Shown one piece after another: positions 1 through 8,003 of a stretch of DNA of 9,872 nt. This DNA is from a virus. Lineage: Duplodnaviria; Heunggongvirae; Uroviricota; Caudoviricetes. The stretch lies in IMG/VR virus record IMGVR_UViG_2663763428_000004; one strand, given 5' to 3'. A program made the translations under genes and the position numbers. The notes beneath the pieces are model-generated. The model did no database searches. It had not been told where the DNA came from and was given only the letters and a program-made list of their open reading frames with translations. Position 1 is the stretch's first letter. Every line of letters starts with the position of its first letter.

Positions 1-157
1 TAATCGTGTCCTCTGTGGTGGGTGTGGTGAATGTTATGTGTGGTTTGTGAGTAGTGTCCTGTGCATAGTCAGGTGTGTGTTTATGTAGAACTTAGGCGAC
101 CACCGAGATCTACACATTTATATTCGGCGGCAGCGTCAGATGTGTAGAAGAGAGTAG
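1..157. other. Non-biological library-adapter read-through at contig end (Illumina P5 sequence, 8-nt index-like spacer, degenerate Nextera read-1 / Tn5 mosaic-end sequence)
   Basis: 95-115 ggcgaccaccgagatctacac exactly matches the 3' part of the P5 adapter. 116-123 is an 8-nt index-like spacer. 124-157 tcggcggcagcgtcagatgtgtagaagagagtag matches TCGTCGGCAGCGTCAGATGTGTATAAGAGACAG apart from a few substitutions to G. 1-94 is GT-rich junk typical of reading past the adapter. Confidence 0.8.
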
Positions 158-693
158 GTAATACCCAAATCCTTGCATCTTTTCGATATTTCCTCATCGA
201 AGAAATACATTACTGTATTTGAAATAATGGGAGAAGAAGGTGCTCCAACACTTAGGCGTAACGGGCTATTTCTTCTTAACTTCCAGAAGAAAAGATTTTT
301 AAGAACAAAGATATCAGTATCAGTTAGTTCAACGCCATAATCTTTTAAGACAGATAAAAGATTATGGGGTTTGATACTCATAAAAAAGTTTTTAAAATCC
401 ATTTTAAGCAAATAATCATTATTACAATGCATTAACGCATTAGATCTAATACTTTTATCGGCTTCATAAGCGAAAGCATTTTCATGAACTTTCAAATTAG
501 CCAACATATGATTGATTACTACCTTCTGTAAGGCTTTAACTTGCCTAGCTGGTTGTGCAATTAATCTATATCCATTACCATTTCTTTTGGCGATAGGATA
601 AATTTTATATCTGCGTGGAATAGTAACAATATACCTTTTAGCCTCTTCTTCGCTAAGAAAAAGACCTTTTGAAATATAACTTAGCAACTCCAT
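158..693 (-). CDS. Retron-type reverse transcriptase, 3'-truncated fragment (N-terminal part through motif B; contig ends just before the expected YxDD box)
   Basis: ORF-track entry 136..708. Retron-RT blocks read directly: YIVTIPRRYKIYPIAKRNGNGYRLIAQPARQVKALQ (compare Ec86 RIYTVEKKG..RTIYQPSRELKALQ), motif A LKMDFKNFF, motif B LSVGAPSSPIISN. Preferred start is the ATG at 693-691, preceded by GGAGG; the track start at 708 is a GTG. The last ~7 codons and the stop at 136-157 are adapter-derived. Confidence 0.85.
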
Positions 694-694
694 T

Positions 695-1681
695 CTAAGC
701 CCCTCCACGCACGATATTGATTTGATTTAGAGCATTTTTCCTTTTTTTTGCAGTCTCGTCCATATCTTTAGCATCCATACTTAAGTAAGATTGTCGGATT
801 GCAACCTTAATATTCATAGAATCCTTTATTTTACCACTAGCACTGATACCAAATTTAAGTTTACTCTCTCTATGCCCTCGGGAATAGAAGTAGTCTGTAC
901 CACTGTAAGATAATGATGAGGTTAATTTCATCTTTTCAAGCAAATAAAGTAAACGAGTTATTATTTTTTGTGGCACATCTATATCCATACAGTATAGTGC
1001 CCACTCTATTTCGCTTTTCTTGATTGGTTCTGATAAAAGGATTATTTCGTAAATCAATATAGCTAGGTGCCCAGTATTTTCAGGGTTATATCGCTCCGTT
1101 TTTTTTACACGTTTTAATCTAGAATGAATATCATGGTAGATAAGCTCAACCTCATCATATTTCATACGATCCGATTTTGGCCATGGATAAACTGATACTG
1201 AGGCCTCATCTATTTTTTTAAGATACTCCAAAGGGCCTAAATATATAAAAGAAGATCTAGCAGGAATATTTTTTCGTTCATTTCCCTCAATCTCCTCAAA
1301 TGGTGCGACTACATGCAATTTTTGAGCTAGAGACTTCCTATTAACAAATAATCCAAGCTCAACTAACGAACCTGCACTTTCTAAACAGATAACAACTAAT
1401 GTTGAAATATTTGCAATATCATCTTCAAAGCTCATTAGATCTGAATATGCCCCCTCTCTGAAGTAGTCATGGAAGTTCTCAGCTAAAATAAGAGAATCTG
1501 ACAATTCAGGTTTGTGGCCTGCTACATAAGTAAATATGTGGTCTCGTACACTCATTGGAGTGGAATTTATCGGCCCACCACAAACAAAAATAATAGGAGG
1601 CATGAACTGAACAGTGAAATTTGAATATTTCAAATCTCCAAACTGCTCTTGTAATGCATTCATATATGCAGAATCACTCAC
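695..1681 (-). CDS. Retron effector candidate with nucleoside 2-deoxyribosyltransferase-like (NDT-like) N-terminal domain, RcaT/Ec86-effector-like
   Basis: 328-aa ORF immediately upstream of the RT on the same strand (stop TAG 697-695, RT ATG 693). N-terminal IIFVCGGP followed by ESAGSLVELG, which resembles the NDT catalytic-glutamate motif (compare DVGLGMELGY). AT-rich like the RT. Start is uncertain: GTG at 1681 per the track, or ATG at 1663. Confidence 0.7.
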   Translation of the reverse strand: MSDSAYMNALQEQFGDLKYSNFTVQFMPPIIFVCGGPINSTPMSVRDHIFTYVAGHKPELSDSLILAENFHDYFREGAYSDLMSFEDDIANISTLVVICLESAGSLVELGLFVNRKSLAQKLHVVAPFEEIEGNERKNIPARSSFIYLGPLEYLKKIDEASVSVYPWPKSDRMKYDEVELIYHDIHSRLKRVKKTERYNPENTGHLAILIYEIILLSEPIKKSEIEWALYCMDIDVPQKIITRLLYLLEKMKLTSSLSYSGTDYFYSRGHRESKLKFGISASGKIKDSMNIKVAIRQSYLSMDAKDMDETAKKRKNALNQINIVRGGA

Positions 1682-1689
1682 CCTTGTGA

Positions 1690-1905
1690 CCCCCTACTCC
1701 AAAAGAAAAGGTGGCTAACCAGCCACCTTCGACCCCTTTACCTAAAGGATGCGCTTTAGACTTTCAGCAAGATCCTGAATGGAACGCAGTGGCATGAAGG
1801 ATCTTGCTGAAAGTGCTAAAGCGCAACCCTAAATGTCCACAATAAATTAGTGTCTGGCGAAACGCCCGACAAGGATAAACCTGTTATCCCGCGCGTAAAG
1901 GTAGG
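1690..1905 (-). ncRNA. Candidate retron msr-msd non-coding RNA (structure-based guess; boundaries approximate)
   Basis: Non-coding stretch directly upstream of the effector and RT. Interrupted 26-bp hairpin at 1751-1824 (perfect 16-bp core 1761-1776 / 1798-1813, 21-nt loop). Further hairpins at 1708-1729, 1857-1867 and around 1872-1888. Possible minus-strand promoter: -35 TTGAAA (plus 1931-1936), -10 TATCCT (plus 1909-1914). No a1/a2 repeat pair or branching G identified. Confidence 0.35.
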
Positions 1906-2261
1906 GTTAGGATAGCAAAAGATGCGAGATTTTCAATAAGTAAGCGTACTGGCTGCCAGCAACCACCTAAACCATTGACATTTAAACAAAAATAAATCTA
2001 ACAATTGAAAGCAATACCTTATTGAATACAGCATTCTTATATCTCTCTTGATATCGCAACATCACAATTATCACCGTTAGTGCGGGCAGCCCCGCACGCC
2101 TGCCCGCTTCGCTTAACAGACTGGTTTTCATGCACCTCATTAATCGTCTCAGAAGCCAGCACACAAGGGTTTTCTCGTCAAAAATGGTGCATAAGACTCA
2201 TGCGTTTTCATGCGCCATAGACATGCACTCATGCGCTCTCATGTCAGCCAGGAAAAGGGGG

Positions 2262-2290
2262 TAAAAAATCCCGGTACTGGACCGGGATTA
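2262..2290 (-). terminator. Rho-independent terminator ending the sid-psu-ogr operon
   Basis: Stem tcccggt (2269-2275) / accggga (2281-2287), 5-nt loop, A-run 2263-2268 on plus strand giving a U6 tract after the stem on the minus strand; about 20 nt downstream of the ogr stop. Confidence 0.6.
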
Positions 2291-2308
2291 CGTGGGCGTT
2301 CTTTCTAA

Positions 2309-2581
2309 TCAGACAGGAATCTGCTGACGGCTTGACAGTTTTGACGCGGAGCCATAGCGATTGAGCGTTTTCTGTTGTTTTTCCGGGGATTGTGCTTTGT
2401 CTGATAGCTGTTCATTGCGCCGGGGTTTCATGATTATCTTATCCACACTCTCCAGTGCCGTAAATGTGCAGGAACATTCCAGATTCTGGCACTGATACCA
2501 CGAGCGTTTAACTGACGGAGCTTCATAGGCTGCTGTTCTGGCGTGTGCAACTGTACCGCATTCCGGACATTTAAGTGCCAT
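2309..2581 (-). CDS. ogr: Ogr/Delta-family zinc-finger late-gene transcriptional activator (single Ogr-like domain)
   Basis: MALKCPECGTVAHARTAAYEAPSVKRSWYQCQNLECSCTFTALESV matches the P2 Ogr C-x2-C...C-x4-C block (compare HCPLCQHAAHARTSRY..RYHQCQNVNCSATF as I recall it). Preferred start is ATG 2581-2579 with AGGAG 8 nt upstream; the track start at 2590 is a GTG. Confidence 0.85.
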   Translation of the reverse strand: MALKCPECGTVAHARTAAYEAPSVKRSWYQCQNLECSCTFTALESVDKIIMKPRRNEQLSDKAQSPEKQQKTLNRYGSASKLSSRQQIPV

Positions 2582-2586
2582 TAATA

Positions 2587-3138
2587 TCACTCCTGTATAT
2601 CGTTAATGTCATTCAGGCGTTGCTGAAAACGCAGATGTTGTGCCGGGGTGTAAGAACCCTGGCAATCACGAATCATCCCGGGGTCAGGCATCAAACCGGA
2701 TTCATCCAGGATCTCACGATAATCCCCGGCAATTTCAGGCGGTGTTATTGCCAGCTGGCGAACCAGAGCACTGCGTAATATACGGGACGCAACGTCAACC
2801 CCTCCGCGCCCCTTCAGGAACGGAGCCAGTGCAGATGTCAGGGCTGCCCCATTCGCCTGCATAAAATTGCTGAGAGCGGCTTCTGTGCAGGCCTCCATCA
2901 GTAAATGCTGCGAGTAAATGCATTCGCGCGCAGCACAGTTAATTTGCCATTTCAGCACATCCAGACGTTCCCGCAGTAATTCGAGCTGTCGGGCATAATC
3001 TGCTGGTTTTTCTGTGGCAGCGAGGAGAGATGTTATCTGTTGTTCAACGGCTTTTCGGCTCTCATTATGTCCGGCCCACAGAATACGGGCATTCCGAAAA
3101 CTGGTAAGTGCCTGGTCAGGCGTGCCTCGGGCCGTCAT
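2587..3138 (-). CDS. psu: Psu-like polarity suppression protein (Rho antagonist / capsid decoration protein of P4-type satellites)
   Basis: 183 aa. Blocks KWQINCAARECIYSQ, FMQANGAALTSALAPFL and YTPAQ resemble P4 Psu as I recall it. AGGAG upstream of ATG 3138; ATGA overlap with the preceding gene. Confidence 0.7.
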   Translation of the reverse strand: MTARGTPDQALTSFRNARILWAGHNESRKAVEQQITSLLAATEKPADYARQLELLRERLDVLKWQINCAARECIYSQHLLMEACTEAALSNFMQANGAALTSALAPFLKGRGGVDVASRILRSALVRQLAITPPEIAGDYREILDESGLMPDPGMIRDCQGSYTPAQHLRFQQRLNDINDIQE

Positions 3139-3878
3139 ACTGCTTTCTCCTTCTCAGCAAGTTCCTGACGAACCTTAATTTTATGCATAGCTGCCGGAGA
3201 GAGTTGATTACTGAAATCCAGACGCGCCGCATAATCCGGGGCAACTCCCGCCAGTTTAAACACCGGGTCCTGCTCAGGCATCGCATCGTTAGCCAGAGCC
3301 GGTCTGGTGATATGTTTATGAATAAAGTCTTTCAGCACTGTGTCCGGGTCATTAACTGAATTCACCACACCCACAACGGCACTGGCTTCCCGGCCCATTG
3401 TGGATTTAAGCAGGCTCAGCGTCTGAATAAGCGCTTTTCCATGCGACTGCATAAAATCCTCCCAGATTTGTTTTGCGCGAATATCCACAAGAATGTTATG
3501 CGCGTGGATATACTTTCCGGCTAATTCTGCAGCTTTCTGCGGCAAAAGTGCATTTTCGCTTTCCTGAGCCGCCAGCAGCTCATCAAAATCCTCAAGCGTT
3601 TCTCGTCCCAGCGCAATTTCCGTGCGCAGTTTTTTCATTTCCTTTGAGACCACGCCCTGACTTTCACGAAACAGCGTGCGCCACTCCTCATTCAGTGTGT
3701 TCGTCGTGGCTTCCATTTCAGCGCGACGCTGGCGGATTGTCGCAATATTATCCGCTGCCGCTTTCTGCTGACGACGTGCTTCAAGCCATGCGTTTCTGGC
3801 TGTGTTCATGGTTTCCAGTGCCCGCTGCGTTACAGCCGGAAAAGTGGAAAGGTTGTTATTCACTGCGGTGTTGTTCAT
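3135..3878 (-). CDS. sid: Sid-like capsid size-determination (external scaffold) protein, Sid/Psu family
   Basis: 247 aa, first gene after the iteron region, AGGAG before ATG 3878, translationally coupled to psu. Predicted helical and charged-residue rich. WRTLFRESQGVVSKE and FMQSHGKALIQTL resemble Sid/Psu-family blocks. Assignment rests mainly on synteny with psu and ogr. Confidence 0.55.
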   Translation of the reverse strand: MNNTAVNNNLSTFPAVTQRALETMNTARNAWLEARRQQKAAADNIATIRQRRAEMEATTNTLNEEWRTLFRESQGVVSKEMKKLRTEIALGRETLEDFDELLAAQESENALLPQKAAELAGKYIHAHNILVDIRAKQIWEDFMQSHGKALIQTLSLLKSTMGREASAVVGVVNSVNDPDTVLKDFIHKHITRPALANDAMPEQDPVFKLAGVAPDYAARLDFSNQLSPAAMHKIKVRQELAEKEKAV

Positions 3879-3912
3879 GACTTCTCCTGTCGGGTTGGTT
3901 CGTTACGTCAAT

Positions 3913-3968
3913 TGTGTCGTGGCTGACACAAGCACACTATCGGTGCTCAGTGTGTGGTGGCTGGCACA
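3913..3968 (-). promoter_or_regulatory. Two TGT-N12-ACA dyads (candidate Ogr/Delta-dependent late promoter upstream of sid)
   Basis: tgtgtcgtggctgacaca at 3913-3930 and tgtgtggtggctggcaca at 3951-3968, each TGT-N12-ACA; the distal one is centred about 81 nt upstream of the sid ATG. Confidence 0.45.
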
Positions 3969-4054
3969 ACGGACGCTTGCGGTTATTCAGACGTGGCTAT
4001 GAAAGCCAGCCAGATAAAAATGCCCTCTGTTTCAGTCTGCTTTATGTCCCTGAT

Positions 4055-4252
4055 GCGGTGGAACAGGTGAAACATGTGTTACAGCTTTGTTTTATAAGGC
4101 ATTTATATACACTGCACCGGTGGAACATCGCGGGTAACAAGGTGGAACAGCGGATTGGCTGGCGTTACATCTGTTCCACCTCACTATTTCAGAAGGTGGA
4201 ACAGGTTCAGCCCTGTAAAATACGGTTGTTCCACCTGTTTCACCTGTTACCC
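4055..4252. repeat. Iteron cluster (candidate crr/ori-like replication element bound by the adjacent primase)
   Basis: GGTGGAACAG/T at 4057-4066, 4119-4128, 4141-4150, 4195-4204; inverted (C/T)TGTTCCACC at 4171-4180 and 4226-4235; variants GTGAAACA 4067-4074, TGTTTCACC 4236-4244, GGGTAACA/TGTTACCC 4132-4139 and 4245-4252. Lies in the non-coding gap just after the primase stop. Confidence 0.6.
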
Positions 4253-4278
4253 TTAATAAATAAGACTCACGCAAAGCC

Positions 4279-6951
4279 TTAACCCGGCACCTCGCTGTTG
4301 AAGACATAGAGCCTGCGGGGATTCATCTCTGGCGGGCGAATGGTTGTCTGGAGTTTGCCATCAGTGGAGGGCAGCAGGTATCCACGATCTGCGCACAGAC
4401 GCGCCACCTTGCGCGGGTCAAATCCCCTGCAGATTTCTTTCCAGCCGGACGGCATGACATAGAACGTAGTGACAGCTTCCGTGCCCTGCGCGGTACTGCC
4501 TTTCTCCACCCTGCGCCAGCCCACCATATTGCCGGGGCGGTTGCGCTCGTCATACCAGTCTGCAAAGCGGCTGTACTGATTCGCGGTAAAGAAACTGCGA
4601 ACCTGCTCCAGTGCGGCGATATCTTCCTGATTGGCGGTGTGCCCGCGATCTTTCAGCCATGCGTTCAGGCAGACGCGGGTTGCCCGCAGTGCTTCACCCT
4701 CAGGCCAGCCGGTGATACCCAGACGGGTTGCCAGTTCACCTGCCATCGCCACCAGAGCAAAGCGGTTCACAGCCCGGCCCACCTGATTGCCTGCATCTTT
4801 CGGAGTCAGGGCGGCAGCATATTCCTTCATCAGCGATTTTGCCTGTGCCGTTAGTCCGTTAAGATCAGCGGTCAGTGCTTTCAGCCACTCCCGGAACGGC
4901 GAACCGTAGTAGCAGGACGTGGCCCATTCAAGATGCTCTGCCAGAGCCTTGCCGCTGTCGAAGCCGTGCAGCTCCTCAAAAACGCCAAACTTCCCGGAAT
5001 CGCTGGGGATCTGGATCATCCTGACTTCCATCCCGGCAAAAGTACGCTCACCGGCCTTTGCCGCATGTTCGGTCAGAGACAACTCGCCAGTTGAAAAGAA
5101 CAACAGGCGCCAATGCTTACGGGTACGCAGCTCACCGTCCGTACCGGCACGGCCCTTGCCCTGACCGTTTGCCAGCATGTAGGCGATATTGCCTGCCTCG
5201 CGTCCGTCAACTTCCCGGATCTCATCAAGCATCATGGCGGCATCGTTGCGGCGGCTGGCGCATCCCTCCAGCGCGTTGCCGGTGGCCCGCCATGTCTGCC
5301 AGTAGTCAGGCCCGCCGCAGACGGAGGTTGCCGCTTTCATGGTGGTGGTCTTACCGTCTGTCGATTCCCCTTTGAGGTGGTAGCCGCCGCCGTCCATACC
5401 AACCAGCCGTAACAGTGGTGCAGCAAAGGCCAGGCTGACAGCAAATGCCACGCGGGAGTTGCCGGTACAGTAGCGGGATACATGCTCCCGCCATTCCTCT
5501 GTTGTGCCCGACACGCGGAAATCACGCCCCTGCACGGAAGTGGTCTGGAGAATGACACCCTCTGCACCTTCACCGCTGACCTCATCCTGCAGGACGTAAA
5601 CCTGACCATGCCAGCCAGTACGACTGACGCAGGTCACGCGGCGTTCCGGTTTACACAGTGAGATATATTCCATCAGGCGTGCGCGTGCCTCACCGGTGGT
5701 GCTGATATAAGACAGCCCGTTAACCAGCAATACCCGGCGCAGTTCCTCACCACTGCCGCTCAGCATTTCCATCGGCATCGCCCAGCGGCGACACTCACCC
5801 CACGTATCTTCCCATTCCAGCAGTCGTCCGAAGTTACCGCCATCGGCATCGCAGGTGATTGCCGTCACGCGCAGCGGGCTGCATATTTTGACGTTCTGGA
5901 TCTCCGTCTCACCGTTGCGCTGTACCTGCTTTTCATACCAGAGATATTCCTGGGTAAGACGGAACCCGTGCGGCAGTTGCGTGCGGCCCTCCCCGCACAG
6001 CACCAGACCGTTACGAAAGGCTTCACGGGCGCGGGTAATACCGTGCTCCCGATGGAAGTCATTCCAGTCGGCCTTAATCTCTCCCGGTGGCAGCGTCATC
6101 CAGCCGCCAACAGCTTTTGCCGCCCGTTCAGCAAAGGCTCTGCCGGGATTCTCACCCCCGTCCTGAAAATCGTTATCACCGGCGATGATAATTTTTACCT
6201 CAGGCCAGCGTGCCCGCAGCGACTGCGCCACATTGGGCAGGTTGCCCGCAGATATGGCAGCCACTACGCATCCGGCAGTGAGCTGACTTACCGTCAGCGC
6301 CGTAGCGTAACCTTCGGTAATCACCACCTGTACCGGTGGTTCAGACGGTAACGGGCTGAGCGACACAAACGCGCCTTTCATCGTGCTGCCGGGCAGTATG
6401 CTTTTTTCACCCGTCGGGGCGATAAGCTGTGCACCAGTCACGGCTCCGGTGTTGGTCGTGAGTGGTAACAGCAGGGAACCGGCAGGAAAATCCTTACCGC
6501 TGATATGCTGCACGCTTCCGGTCAGAGAGGCCGGGTATCCGGCGAACCCTTTTCCTGTCAGATAGGCGCTTTCTCCCGTGTGGCTCTCTTTCATCAGCGC
6601 CGCCACGGTAAGACCCATGTCGCGTTTAGGGGCTTTTTTTCTGGCAGGCTTAACAGGCAGTTCCTGCACATCCGGCACATTAAGCACCTGCGCCACCTCC
6701 TGCGCAGCCTTTCTGACGCTGTAACCGGTTACGAGCTTAACCAGATCCAGACCGTCACCATTGCCACACTGGCTGCAGATCCACGTCCCGCGCCCGTCAA
6801 GGTCATCAAGGCGAAAACGATCCTTGCCCCCACATTTCGGGCAGGGACCGTGCCTGCCGTTTTCAGGTACATCAATACGCAGCATCTGGAGAATAACGGG
6901 CCATTTCCCCCGTGCGGCGGCTGAAATCTGCGTAACCGTCTGTATTGTCAT
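4279..6951 (-). CDS. Satellite primase-helicase, P4 alpha-like (N-terminal zinc ribbon, TOPRIM, C-terminal P-loop NTPase)
   Basis: 890 aa. CPKCGG..(x19)..CSQCG zinc ribbon (coded about 6766-6843); TOPRIM-like VVITEGYATA...IIIAGDND; Walker A GESTDGKTT. ATG 6951 with GGGGGA upstream; ATGA overlap with the upstream gene. Confidence 0.9.
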   Translation of the reverse strand: MTIQTVTQISAAARGKWPVILQMLRIDVPENGRHGPCPKCGGKDRFRLDDLDGRGTWICSQCGNGDGLDLVKLVTGYSVRKAAQEVAQVLNVPDVQELPVKPARKKAPKRDMGLTVAALMKESHTGESAYLTGKGFAGYPASLTGSVQHISGKDFPAGSLLLPLTTNTGAVTGAQLIAPTGEKSILPGSTMKGAFVSLSPLPSEPPVQVVITEGYATALTVSQLTAGCVVAAISAGNLPNVAQSLRARWPEVKIIIAGDNDFQDGGENPGRAFAERAAKAVGGWMTLPPGEIKADWNDFHREHGITRAREAFRNGLVLCGEGRTQLPHGFRLTQEYLWYEKQVQRNGETEIQNVKICSPLRVTAITCDADGGNFGRLLEWEDTWGECRRWAMPMEMLSGSGEELRRVLLVNGLSYISTTGEARARLMEYISLCKPERRVTCVSRTGWHGQVYVLQDEVSGEGAEGVILQTTSVQGRDFRVSGTTEEWREHVSRYCTGNSRVAFAVSLAFAAPLLRLVGMDGGGYHLKGESTDGKTTTMKAATSVCGGPDYWQTWRATGNALEGCASRRNDAAMMLDEIREVDGREAGNIAYMLANGQGKGRAGTDGELRTRKHWRLLFFSTGELSLTEHAAKAGERTFAGMEVRMIQIPSDSGKFGVFEELHGFDSGKALAEHLEWATSCYYGSPFREWLKALTADLNGLTAQAKSLMKEYAAALTPKDAGNQVGRAVNRFALVAMAGELATRLGITGWPEGEALRATRVCLNAWLKDRGHTANQEDIAALEQVRSFFTANQYSRFADWYDERNRPGNMVGWRRVEKGSTAQGTEAVTTFYVMPSGWKEICRGFDPRKVARLCADRGYLLPSTDGKLQTTIRPPEMNPRRLYVFNSEVPG

Positions 6952-7331
6952 ACTTCCCCCTGATACAACGTCACACCGGTACTGCAGAAGTCATCAAAGG
7001 CCGCCGGAAGCGTGCGGTACATCTCCGCCATCACTTCACAGCCGCGCGCGGTCAGTACCGGCGGCGCGGTCAGCAGTGACGGCTCCAGCATGTCAGTCAG
7101 CAGTGCCAGCGCGGCAGCGGCGCCCTGTGCTTCGCCGTACTCGTTAATCAGTACGCACTCGATATGCAGCGCAATGGCCATTTCAATACGCTCCACCGTC
7201 AGGCTGTGCGGACCATACTGATCACTGCCAGTTTCGTTCAGCATTTTCTGCCGCCATGCTGAAGCAATAGCCCGCCGGTAAAGCGCGGTGGTCATTTCTG
7301 CCGGGAAAATGGAAACCTGCGGCTGGTTCAT
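6948..7331 (-). CDS. Hypothetical protein (127 aa), translationally coupled upstream of the primase
   Basis: ATG at 7331; ATGA overlaps at both ends; GC content like the satellite core. No motif recognised. Confidence 0.6.
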   Translation of the reverse strand: MNQPQVSIFPAEMTTALYRRAIASAWRQKMLNETGSDQYGPHSLTVERIEMAIALHIECVLINEYGEAQGAAAALALLTDMLEPSLLTAPPVLTARGCEVMAEMYRTLPAAFDDFCSTGVTLYQGEV

Positions 7332-7612
7332 CTGGCACCTCCTTCAATCAGTGCGCAGCTGTGTGCAATATCCGTCAAATCTGCCAGCAGGTACTCCATC
7401 AGCGCGGCGACACCATGCGCACAGCCAGCGTCCAGTGCTCCGGCCTGAGACGGGTATTCAGAAAAGAGAAGCTGGAGCATGTCGCAGGCATTTCTTGCGC
7501 GGGTCAGTTTTCCGAAACTGTCCTCTGACAACCCATAGGCAAAAGCACCGGTATTGTGTTTTTCAGGCAAAGTGTGGCCCTGAGCACCGTTGTGCCCGTT
7601 TGAAATATTCAT
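7328..7612 (-). CDS. Hypothetical protein (94 aa)
   Basis: ATG 7612 with GGAG upstream; ATGA overlap with the next gene. No motif recognised. Its position is analogous to the small regulators upstream of alpha in P4, but that is positional only. Confidence 0.5.
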   Translation of the reverse strand: MNISNGHNGAQGHTLPEKHNTGAFAYGLSEDSFGKLTRARNACDMLQLLFSEYPSQAGALDAGCAHGVAALMEYLLADLTDIAHSCALIEGGAR

Positions 7613-7643
7613 CGTGGATTACTCCGTTTTCAGCGGTATTTTG

Positions 7644-8003
7644 TCAGAGAAACTTTGAATAGTGACCGTCGTCAGGCTCAGCAGAACGCCGTATGCTACG
7701 CTCCCGCCAGCGGATAAATAGCACAGACGGATGCAGTGTCAGCGGGCCGGAACCACTACCGCCAGCAGGAGCTGGTGCAGGCTTCAAGAGCGGTACATCA
7801 AACAGGCGCGTATACCGCTGTTCAAACCATGCCAGAGGGCAGGAAGAAAGCTGGTTGTCGCTGTCATGACGTATCAGCACTTCACAGCTGAATTCAGGAT
7901 TAACCAGCGCCACAGAGGGCGAGGCTTCTATTAATCGGATAATCGTGACCGTCCAGCCACGTTCATGCTGCCAGCGTTCGCCGGGGTGCGGATAATTACG
8001 CAT
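7644..8003 (-). CDS. Hypothetical protein (~119 aa)
   Basis: Track ORF 7644..8033 begins at a TTG; I prefer the ATG at 8003-8001, which is preceded by GGAGGTG. No motif recognised. Confidence 0.5.
   Translation of the reverse strand: MRNYPHPGERWQHERGWTVTIIRLIEASPSVALVNPEFSCEVLIRHDSDNQLSSCPLAWFEQRYTRLFDVPLLKPAPAPAGGSGSGPLTLHPSVLFIRWRERSIRRSAEPDDGHYSKFL

Follow-up and report, generated by a model that had tools for sequence, protein, structure and literature searches.

The minus-strand hairpin region of an Escherichia coli P4-like satellite prophage is very probably the msr-msd gene of Retron-Eco9

The 9,872 nt stretch of viral DNA analyzed here (IMG/VR record IMGVR_UViG_2663763428_000004; "the window") carries a complete retron ncRNA gene (msr-msd) on the minus strand at positions 1735-1901. 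We consider it very likely (about 95%) that this gene belongs to Retron-Eco9, a retron of type II-A (St85/Sen2 family) which an E. coli P4-like satellite prophage carries in its variable defence locus. Retron-Eco9 is already known, and there is no new biology in this assignment. A real retron ncRNA was recovered from the raw sequence, and it is one that Rfam misses at its gathering score.

An earlier note had interpreted the hairpins at 1690-1905 as an msr-msd RNA. This interpretation is supported by the effector-RT context, by Rfam matches, by covariation, by an invariant guanosine, and by the published msDNA of Eco9. The proposed boundaries proved essentially right, but they include a terminator hairpin which is outside the msr-msd gene proper. 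The features of the locus are compiled in Table 1.

Table 1. Features of the retron locus (window coordinates) and their basis
Feature	Position	Strand	Description and basis
Retron RT gene (RT-Eco9/rrtT)	152..693	-	First ~181 codons only; Pfam RVT_1, PADLOC RT_II-A, NCBIfam
Effector/toxin gene RcaT-Eco9 (NDT-like, St85/STM3845 family)	695..1681	-	328 aa, GTG start; PADLOC, NCBIfam, RefSeq name, primers, serines
Terminator-like hairpin with U tract	1699..1730	-	GAAGGUGGCU-GGUU-AGCCACCUUU + U tract; located after a2 and ahead of the effector start codon; terminator scan
a2 inverted repeat	1735..1741	-	GUAAAGG; pairs with a1; inverted repeat and covariation
msd template hairpin	1742..1832	-	Inverted repeats I1 and I2; 30 consensus pairs; contains the 1751-1824 hairpin
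Single-stranded msr 3' segment	1833..1850	-	CUAAUUUAUUGUGGACAU; UUAUUG invariant or nearly so in 42 sequences
msr stem-loop 2	1851..1871	-	UGUC-G-GGCG-UUU-CGCC-A-GACA; highly conserved; best-conserved block of the Rfam msr match
msr stem-loop 1	1872..1890	-	GGGAUAA-CAGGU-UUAUCCU; MFE and centroid fold; 3 consensus pairs, all compensatory
Predicted branching (priming) guanosine	1894	-	UUUAC-G-CG; first base after a1; invariant in 42/42
a1 inverted repeat	1895..1901	-	CCUUUAC; perfect 7-nt repeat with a2; 99.3% paired in 42 sequences
Sigma-70-type promoter	1909..1936	-	-35 TTGAAA (1936-1931), 16-nt spacer, TGn-extended -10 TATCCT (1914-1909); consensus scan

Genomic context in a P4-like satellite

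All large ORFs of the window are encoded on the minus strand. Those identified with Pfam code for a P4-type alpha primase with Zn-ribbon, Toprim, and DUF927 domains (4279-6951), for a DUF5375 protein, for a protein similar to Sid, for Psu (2587-3138), and for a zinc finger protein of the Ogr/Delta type (2309-2590). Along the minus strand, delta is followed by a non-coding stretch of 628 nt, by the 328-aa ORF (695-1681, same strand), and by the gene for an RVT_1 reverse transcriptase.

Window positions 152-8000 are 100% identical to E. coli M217. At this locus of M217, the RefSeq annotation has a "retron St85 family effector protein" and a "retron St85 family RNA-directed DNA polymerase", and no annotation under the ncRNA region. 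Because the effector and RT genes are located directly downstream, the hairpin region is at the position expected for the msr-msd of a type II-A retron.

The genes psu, delta, and alpha primase are found within the window, and in an identical locus (L001) an integrase pseudogene is located downstream of the RT gene. This corresponds to the arrangement of the P4-like satellite defence hotspot, which has the late genes (sid, psu, delta) and the alpha primase on one side and an integrase on the other. The layout primase-delta-[retron]-integrase is repeated in loci L038-L043. The defence hotspot of P4 has been described, and retrons are among its cargo (PMC9122126).

The late genes of the window (2309-3878, minus strand) have the order sid-like, psu, delta, and the Delta protein is short (93 aa, single-domain). 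In P4, the order is sid-delta-psu and Delta has double length. The Sid-like protein has a weak match to the Psu family (1.8e-9). Just past the delta stop codon, there is a perfect 9-bp hairpin (AATCCCGGT/ACCGGGATT, 2267-2289, minus strand) which is followed by a T run and is likely the terminator of the sid-psu-delta operon; our consensus scan does not have it in its list. Between this hairpin and the retron promoter, a 17-nt direct repeat similar to ACTCATGCGTTTTCATG occurs in four copies (2116-2243; 71-100% identical, spaced by 31-45 nt), which could be a cis-acting site of the satellite. A candidate sequence for the P2/P4 cos core has no match in the window, and a search of a phage collection with window positions 1-2400 did not return any match.

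The effector and reverse transcriptase genes

The effector matches PADLOC model NDT_II-A (1.8e-87) and NCBIfam STM3845_fam (NF038232) with 223.7 bits, the cut-off being 100. Its homologues (226 are detectable) are all called St85-family effectors where the source provides a name, and Pfam domain PF28093 is found among them. The GTG start codon at 1681 aligns with M1 of the homologues (family consensus MSxxxYxxAL).

The RT matches PADLOC model RT_II-A (1.7e-69) and NCBIfam retron_St85_RT (NF038233; 333.9 bits, cut-off 235). In the identical locus L001, the RT is intact (310 aa) and shows the motifs NALMH85, YADD183, and VTG234 (NAXXH class). Thus, an NDT-like STM3845/RcaT effector is encoded between the ncRNA and an RT which passes the St85-family model and has, in L001, the motifs NAXXH, YADD, and VTG, as is characteristic for type II-A.

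In the window, the RT ORF ends prematurely at about codon 181, immediately ahead of YADD. The Nextera transposase adapter matches window positions 153-124 (minus strand) at 28 of 30 positions. It is followed by an 8-nt index-like stretch and then by the reverse complement of P5, which corresponds to window positions 115-95 (21/21). The remaining sequence at the window start is low-complexity junk. A truncation of the RT by a real pseudogene or an IS insertion was considered and rejected, since window positions 1-151 have no match among 5,426 E. coli genomes and fit the Nextera and P5 adapters. The RT "stop" at 136 is adapter read-through at the contig end and thus an assembly artefact.

Anatomy of the msr-msd RNA

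The region has the features of a retron msr-msd: a1/a2 pairing, a conserved G 3' of a1, msr stem-loops, and a long msd hairpin, the base of which abuts a2. The a1/a2 pair and the branching G had not been identified in the earlier note; both are assigned here (1895-1901 with 1735-1741, and G1894). With 7 bp, the a1/a2 pairing is short for a retron, which counts against the assignment.

Msr stem-loop 1 varies among relatives in length and sequence. Msr stem-loop 2 is likely the RT-recognition hairpin, by analogy to the RTs of Ec86 and Ec73, which bind an 8-9-bp stem with a 3-base loop (review PMC6868368). If the canonical retron pathway applies, the DNA-RNA hybrid is expected to form in the single-stranded msr 3' segment, where the RT would also terminate.

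The long hairpin had been described as a stem of ca 26 bp at 1751-1824 with a perfect 16-bp core and a 21-nt loop. It is real, and so is the perfect core (1760-1775/1799-1814), but the stem is longer (1742-1832) and the loop comprises 11-23 nt, depending on how the imperfect distal pairs are counted. The I1/I2 arms pair over 22 nt with 91% complementarity (1760-1781/1793-1814) and over 13 nt with 92% complementarity (1747-1759/1816-1828). The smaller flanking hairpins, which had also been proposed, correspond to the two msr stem-loops (1890-1872 and 1871-1851) and to the hairpin part of the terminator-like element (1730-1707).

RNA folding had been suggested as a check, and it bears out the structured nature of the region: the 259-nt minus-strand RNA folds with -99.3 kcal/mol (shuffled sequences: -69.0 +/- 4.3 kcal/mol; z = -7.1). 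When folded as DNA, the msd segment has z = -10.0. A pairing of 1902-1908 with 1825-1831 (I5), which is the choice of the single-sequence MFE fold, was rejected as its 5' arm is unconserved in relatives; its 3' arm (1825-1831) belongs to the conserved base of the msd stem.

The msDNA would equal the plus strand from about 1742 or 1743 to about 1838, with exact ends that we infer. When extrapolated from St85, the DNA before trimming is predicted to have a length of about 95-97 nt. Going by the name St85 and by the title of the work of Ahmed and Shimamoto from 2003, the St85 msDNA is said to be 85 nt long.

Conservation and covariation

For comparison, 32 distant and 12 closer loci were collected. 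A profile search of genome contigs with the effector alignment resulted in distant relatives only (34-47% identity), and the closer ones were gathered individually. The upstream regions of the close relatives can be aligned from promoter to terminator, and their msd stem and terminator hairpin show obvious compensatory changes. RNAalifold, applied to a MAFFT alignment of 16 sequences, predicted 48 pairs, of which 19 are compensatory; these pairs make up a1/a2, the two msr hairpins, and the msd stem. This alignment was used to build a covariance model (R1), which scores 175 bits for the window. For 42 of the 43 sequences searched, the model matches over its full length, directly upstream of the effector gene. 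Matches on the opposite strand (25-45 bits) are caused by the palindrome of the msd stem; they were left out of the resulting 42-sequence alignment.

In the 42-sequence alignment, 94.9% of the cells are paired, compared to 41-49% when the partners are slid by 1-3 columns. Pairs changed on both sides number 35 of 48 (12-18 in the slid controls), and none of 500 shuffles reached any of the pairing measures. For a1/a2 (helix 1), five of the seven pairs are changed on both sides. Helix 3 (msr stem-loop 2) has 8 pairs, of which five covary, and is 94.3% paired. Helices 4 and 5 (msd) have 30 pairs, 22 of them compensatory, and are 93-95% paired. All 42 aligned ncRNAs have a G directly after a1 (column 16 of alignment A4). 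The alignment was fitted to the model structure and hence favors it, but the covariation signal can be argued to be real because of the margin over the slid controls and because of the independent MAFFT/RNAalifold result.

The 319-nt ncRNA region is present in 156 of 5,426 complete E. coli genomes, once in each. Of these copies, 154 have at least 99% sequence identity, and one is on a plasmid. No annotation was found under this region in any of the 20 genome records listed. There is thus an annotation gap: the ncRNA is unannotated in RefSeq and is carried by 156 complete E. coli genomes.

These data bear on the question of whether the long hairpin might be a mere terminator or palindrome of the upstream P4 late operon (sid-psu-delta) without any role as a template. 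The hairpin is downstream of delta on the same strand, and long GC-containing hairpins can terminate transcription. However, a separate hairpin with a U run (2289-2267) already belongs to the delta operon, a U tract is missing from the msd hairpin, and delta and the msd hairpin are separated by about 330 nt and a promoter. Also, loci which are devoid of P4 genes (e.g., L034, L036, L044, L045) carry this RNA upstream of the effector as well, and the hairpin covaries together with a1/a2 and the msr hairpins. Finally, RT-DNA sequencing of Eco9 has already reported an msDNA which equals the plus strand from about 1742 to 1838. We thus consider a terminator without template function to be exceedingly improbable.

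Promoter, terminator, and transcript

A minus-strand promoter (TTGAAA, 16 nt, TATCCT) had been proposed in the earlier note and was recovered by our consensus scan, with a TG preceding the -10 box. The promoter aligns among close relatives. A TTGnnn-N15-19-TAnnnT motif ending 4-9 nt before a1 is found in 36 of the 42 related loci. Because its spacing before a1 is conserved, transcription probably starts at about a1, with a predicted start near 1902, i.e., 0-1 nt before a1.

The terminator-like hairpin has the same position in relatives (L034-L045 and others), with its structure being kept while its sequence is different. According to a crude test, at least 20 of the 42 loci have a hairpin and a T-rich tail after a2. 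The distance from the promoter to the U tract of this element is about 200 nt. The predicted transcript is thus close to the ca 210 nt which had been estimated, and its length agrees with that of the ca 190-nt Salmonella precursor.

A terminator-like hairpin which is conserved in position ahead of the effector start codon might also indicate a cis-acting leader or attenuator that only controls the effector mRNA, with hairpins that are regulatory and do not serve as a template. Some read-through attenuation is indeed plausible. However, it fits as a layer on top of a retron rather than as its replacement, and a template function is favored by the features of msr and msd, by the RT encoded alongside, and by the msDNA which has been published. 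We consider a purely regulatory leader to be highly unlikely.

The hairpin at 1730-1699 might terminate transcription in part only, which would result in a large excess of the ncRNA (antitoxin precursor) over the rcaT-RT mRNA. As the retron is directly downstream of the P4 late operon, activation of that operon by a helper phage might alter the read-through into the retron. If this is true, arming of the retron would be coupled to the satellite life cycle. We regard this scenario as speculative and rather unlikely to hold. Neither the partial terminator nor the coupling to the late operon was found to be stated in the retron literature consulted.

Rfam matches and the relation to STnc400

A covariance search with retron ncRNA models had been proposed as a further check. 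Matches over the full length of two models were obtained, but both are below the gathering scores, and there is no Rfam match at the gathering thresholds. With a relaxed E-value, msr (RF00170) matches 1836-1902 (minus strand) with 42.2 bits (gathering score 52; E 5.8e-6), and STnc400 (RF02058) matches 1695-1831 (minus strand) with 55.4 bits (gathering score 80; E 8.8e-10). In the msr match, the G within UUAGCG of the Rfam consensus is aligned to G1894. The STnc400 match includes the terminator-like hairpin at 1730-1699. For msr, the score is a threshold miss rather than a structural mismatch, as the RF00170 model is narrow. The exact coordinates and the 42-sequence alignment could be used to seed a better covariance model for ncRNAs of St85-family retrons.

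STnc400 is a Salmonella sRNA with species of ca 190 nt and ca 55 nt on Northern blots (PMC2515195). It is encoded between STM3844 and STM3845 on the same strand. Since STM3845 is the effector and STM3846 the RT of the St85 retron, this is where the ncRNA of that retron is located.

Rfam files this Salmonella homologue as an sRNA, and it was found by Hfq co-immunoprecipitation sequencing. It might thus be argued that the RNA described here is a free-standing STnc400-like regulatory sRNA, with base pairing as its mode of action and no relation to reverse transcription. However, STnc400 is exactly at the St85 msr-msd site and is not Hfq-enriched (112 control reads vs. 42 co-IP reads; PMC2515195). 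Also, the RNA always accompanies the effector-RT pair, and it has the invariant branching G and a1/a2. An sRNA of this type is therefore very improbable.

Identity with Retron-Eco9

All seven cloning primers which were reported for Retron-Eco9 by Bobonis et al. map uniquely and at their stated sites, either in the window or in the identical locus L001. The sites are the msr start (1930-1904), the rcaT start (1681-1651), rcaT +107 (1575-1603), the rcaT end (690-707), the RT start (693-663), the RT end, and a position downstream of RT. Compared with the window, each primer text shows 1-4 edits, namely missing letters, which we attribute to machine reading of the PDF, and one substitution each in JB368 and JB392. 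The substitution in JB368 is an engineered ATG which replaces the native GTG start.

Residues Ser155, Ser181, Ser254, and Ser292 of RcaT-Eco9 correspond to S161, S187, S260, and S298 of the window protein, so that all four fit with a constant offset of +6. The RcaT-Eco9 numbering in the paper on the T7 kinase fits only when counted from Met7 (ATG at 1663). The constant offset indicates that this paper numbers the protein from Met7, and that there are two annotations which start six residues apart.

The seven primers and the four serine positions together indicate that the element is Retron-Eco9. Based on these sequence matches, identity with the retron of strain NILS-16 is near-certain, although not base for base. 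A full-text literature search for the msd and msr sequence strings did not find any paper.

Proposed mechanism

The following scheme combines predictions for the window with published results on Sen2, Eco9, and other retrons. The sigma-70 promoter at 1936-1909 would start an RNA of ca 200 nt at about a1. A large part of these transcripts probably terminates at the hairpin with its U tract (1730-1699), while read-through would provide the rcaT-RT mRNA. Pairing of a1 (1901-1895) with a2 (1741-1735), which is supported here by covariation, positions the invariant G1894 adjacent to the msd hairpin base.

As judged from published work on Sen2, on Eco9, and on retrons in general, the RT would bind the conserved msr stem-loop (1871-1851). 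As in published retrons, it would then prime from the 2'-OH of G1894 and copy the msd hairpin, from 1742 upwards, into single-stranded DNA. The 2'-5' RNA-DNA branch and the RT dependence of the msDNA have been published for Eco9 and Sen2, and in Sen2 the msDNA is lost upon mutation of the branching G. According to results on Sen2 and Eco9, RNase H would remove the template and fix the termination point, and Exo VII would trim the first four nucleotides, resulting in an unbranched msDNA. For Eco9, it was reported that msDNA production depends on RNase H and on Exo VII and that the retron behaves as a toxin-antitoxin system.

The RT-msDNA complex would keep the RcaT toxin inactive, as published for Sen2 and Eco9, with the RT providing specificity in RcaT neutralisation in both of them. 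Phage factors which disturb the RT-msDNA complex would, as suggested by published work, free RcaT so that infection is aborted. For Eco9, the RT-DNA has been sequenced, and the retron confers a modest defence against T2 and a defence against T7 which is countered by the T7 kinase.

Comparison with known retrons

Retron-Eco9 of E. coli NILS-16 (Bobonis et al. 2020/2022) has the same operon order (msr-msd, rcaT, RT) and the same family relation to Sen2 as the retron in the window. Compared via primers and serine positions, no real difference was detected.

Sen2/St85 of Salmonella Typhimurium (msr-msd = Rfam STnc400; RcaT = STM3845; RT = STM3846) is built in the same way (type II-A). The two retrons have in common the msr core UAGGGUUGCGC, the junction GCGC-AUCCUNUAG-(G)UAAAG, and a terminator hairpin after a2. 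Published identities between Eco9 and Sen2 are 43% (RcaT) and 49% (RT) at the protein level and 58% at the nucleotide level (msd). The repeats a1/a2 are CUCUUUA/UAAAGAG in the Sen2-like sequence but CCUUUAC/GUAAAGG here. The msd hairpin is 90 nt long as compared to 78 nt in the STnc400 consensus, i.e., about 12 nt longer. Unlike Sen2/St85, the retron described here resides in a P4-like satellite.

Eco3/Ec73 on retronphage phiR73 likewise has an ORF between msr-msd and RT and a P4-like carrier. Identity with this classical P4-borne retron was considered and rejected, as the window does not contain the msd primer sequences published for Ec73. The two are distinct retrons, with host elements that resemble each other.

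Eco1/Ec86, which is also of type II-A and for which structures have been solved, likewise has an NDT-like effector with the RT-msDNA as antitoxin. Its RT and effector, as represented in PDB, are detectable as distant homologues (E 1e-30 and E 2e-6, respectively). In Ec86, the effector gene is downstream of the RT gene, whereas it is between ncRNA and RT in the locus described here. The msr hairpin of Ec86 has a UUU loop, as found here, and the branching G follows UUA/UAC at the a1 end. While the msDNA of Ec86 stays branched, that of Eco9 is unbranched after processing by Exo VII.
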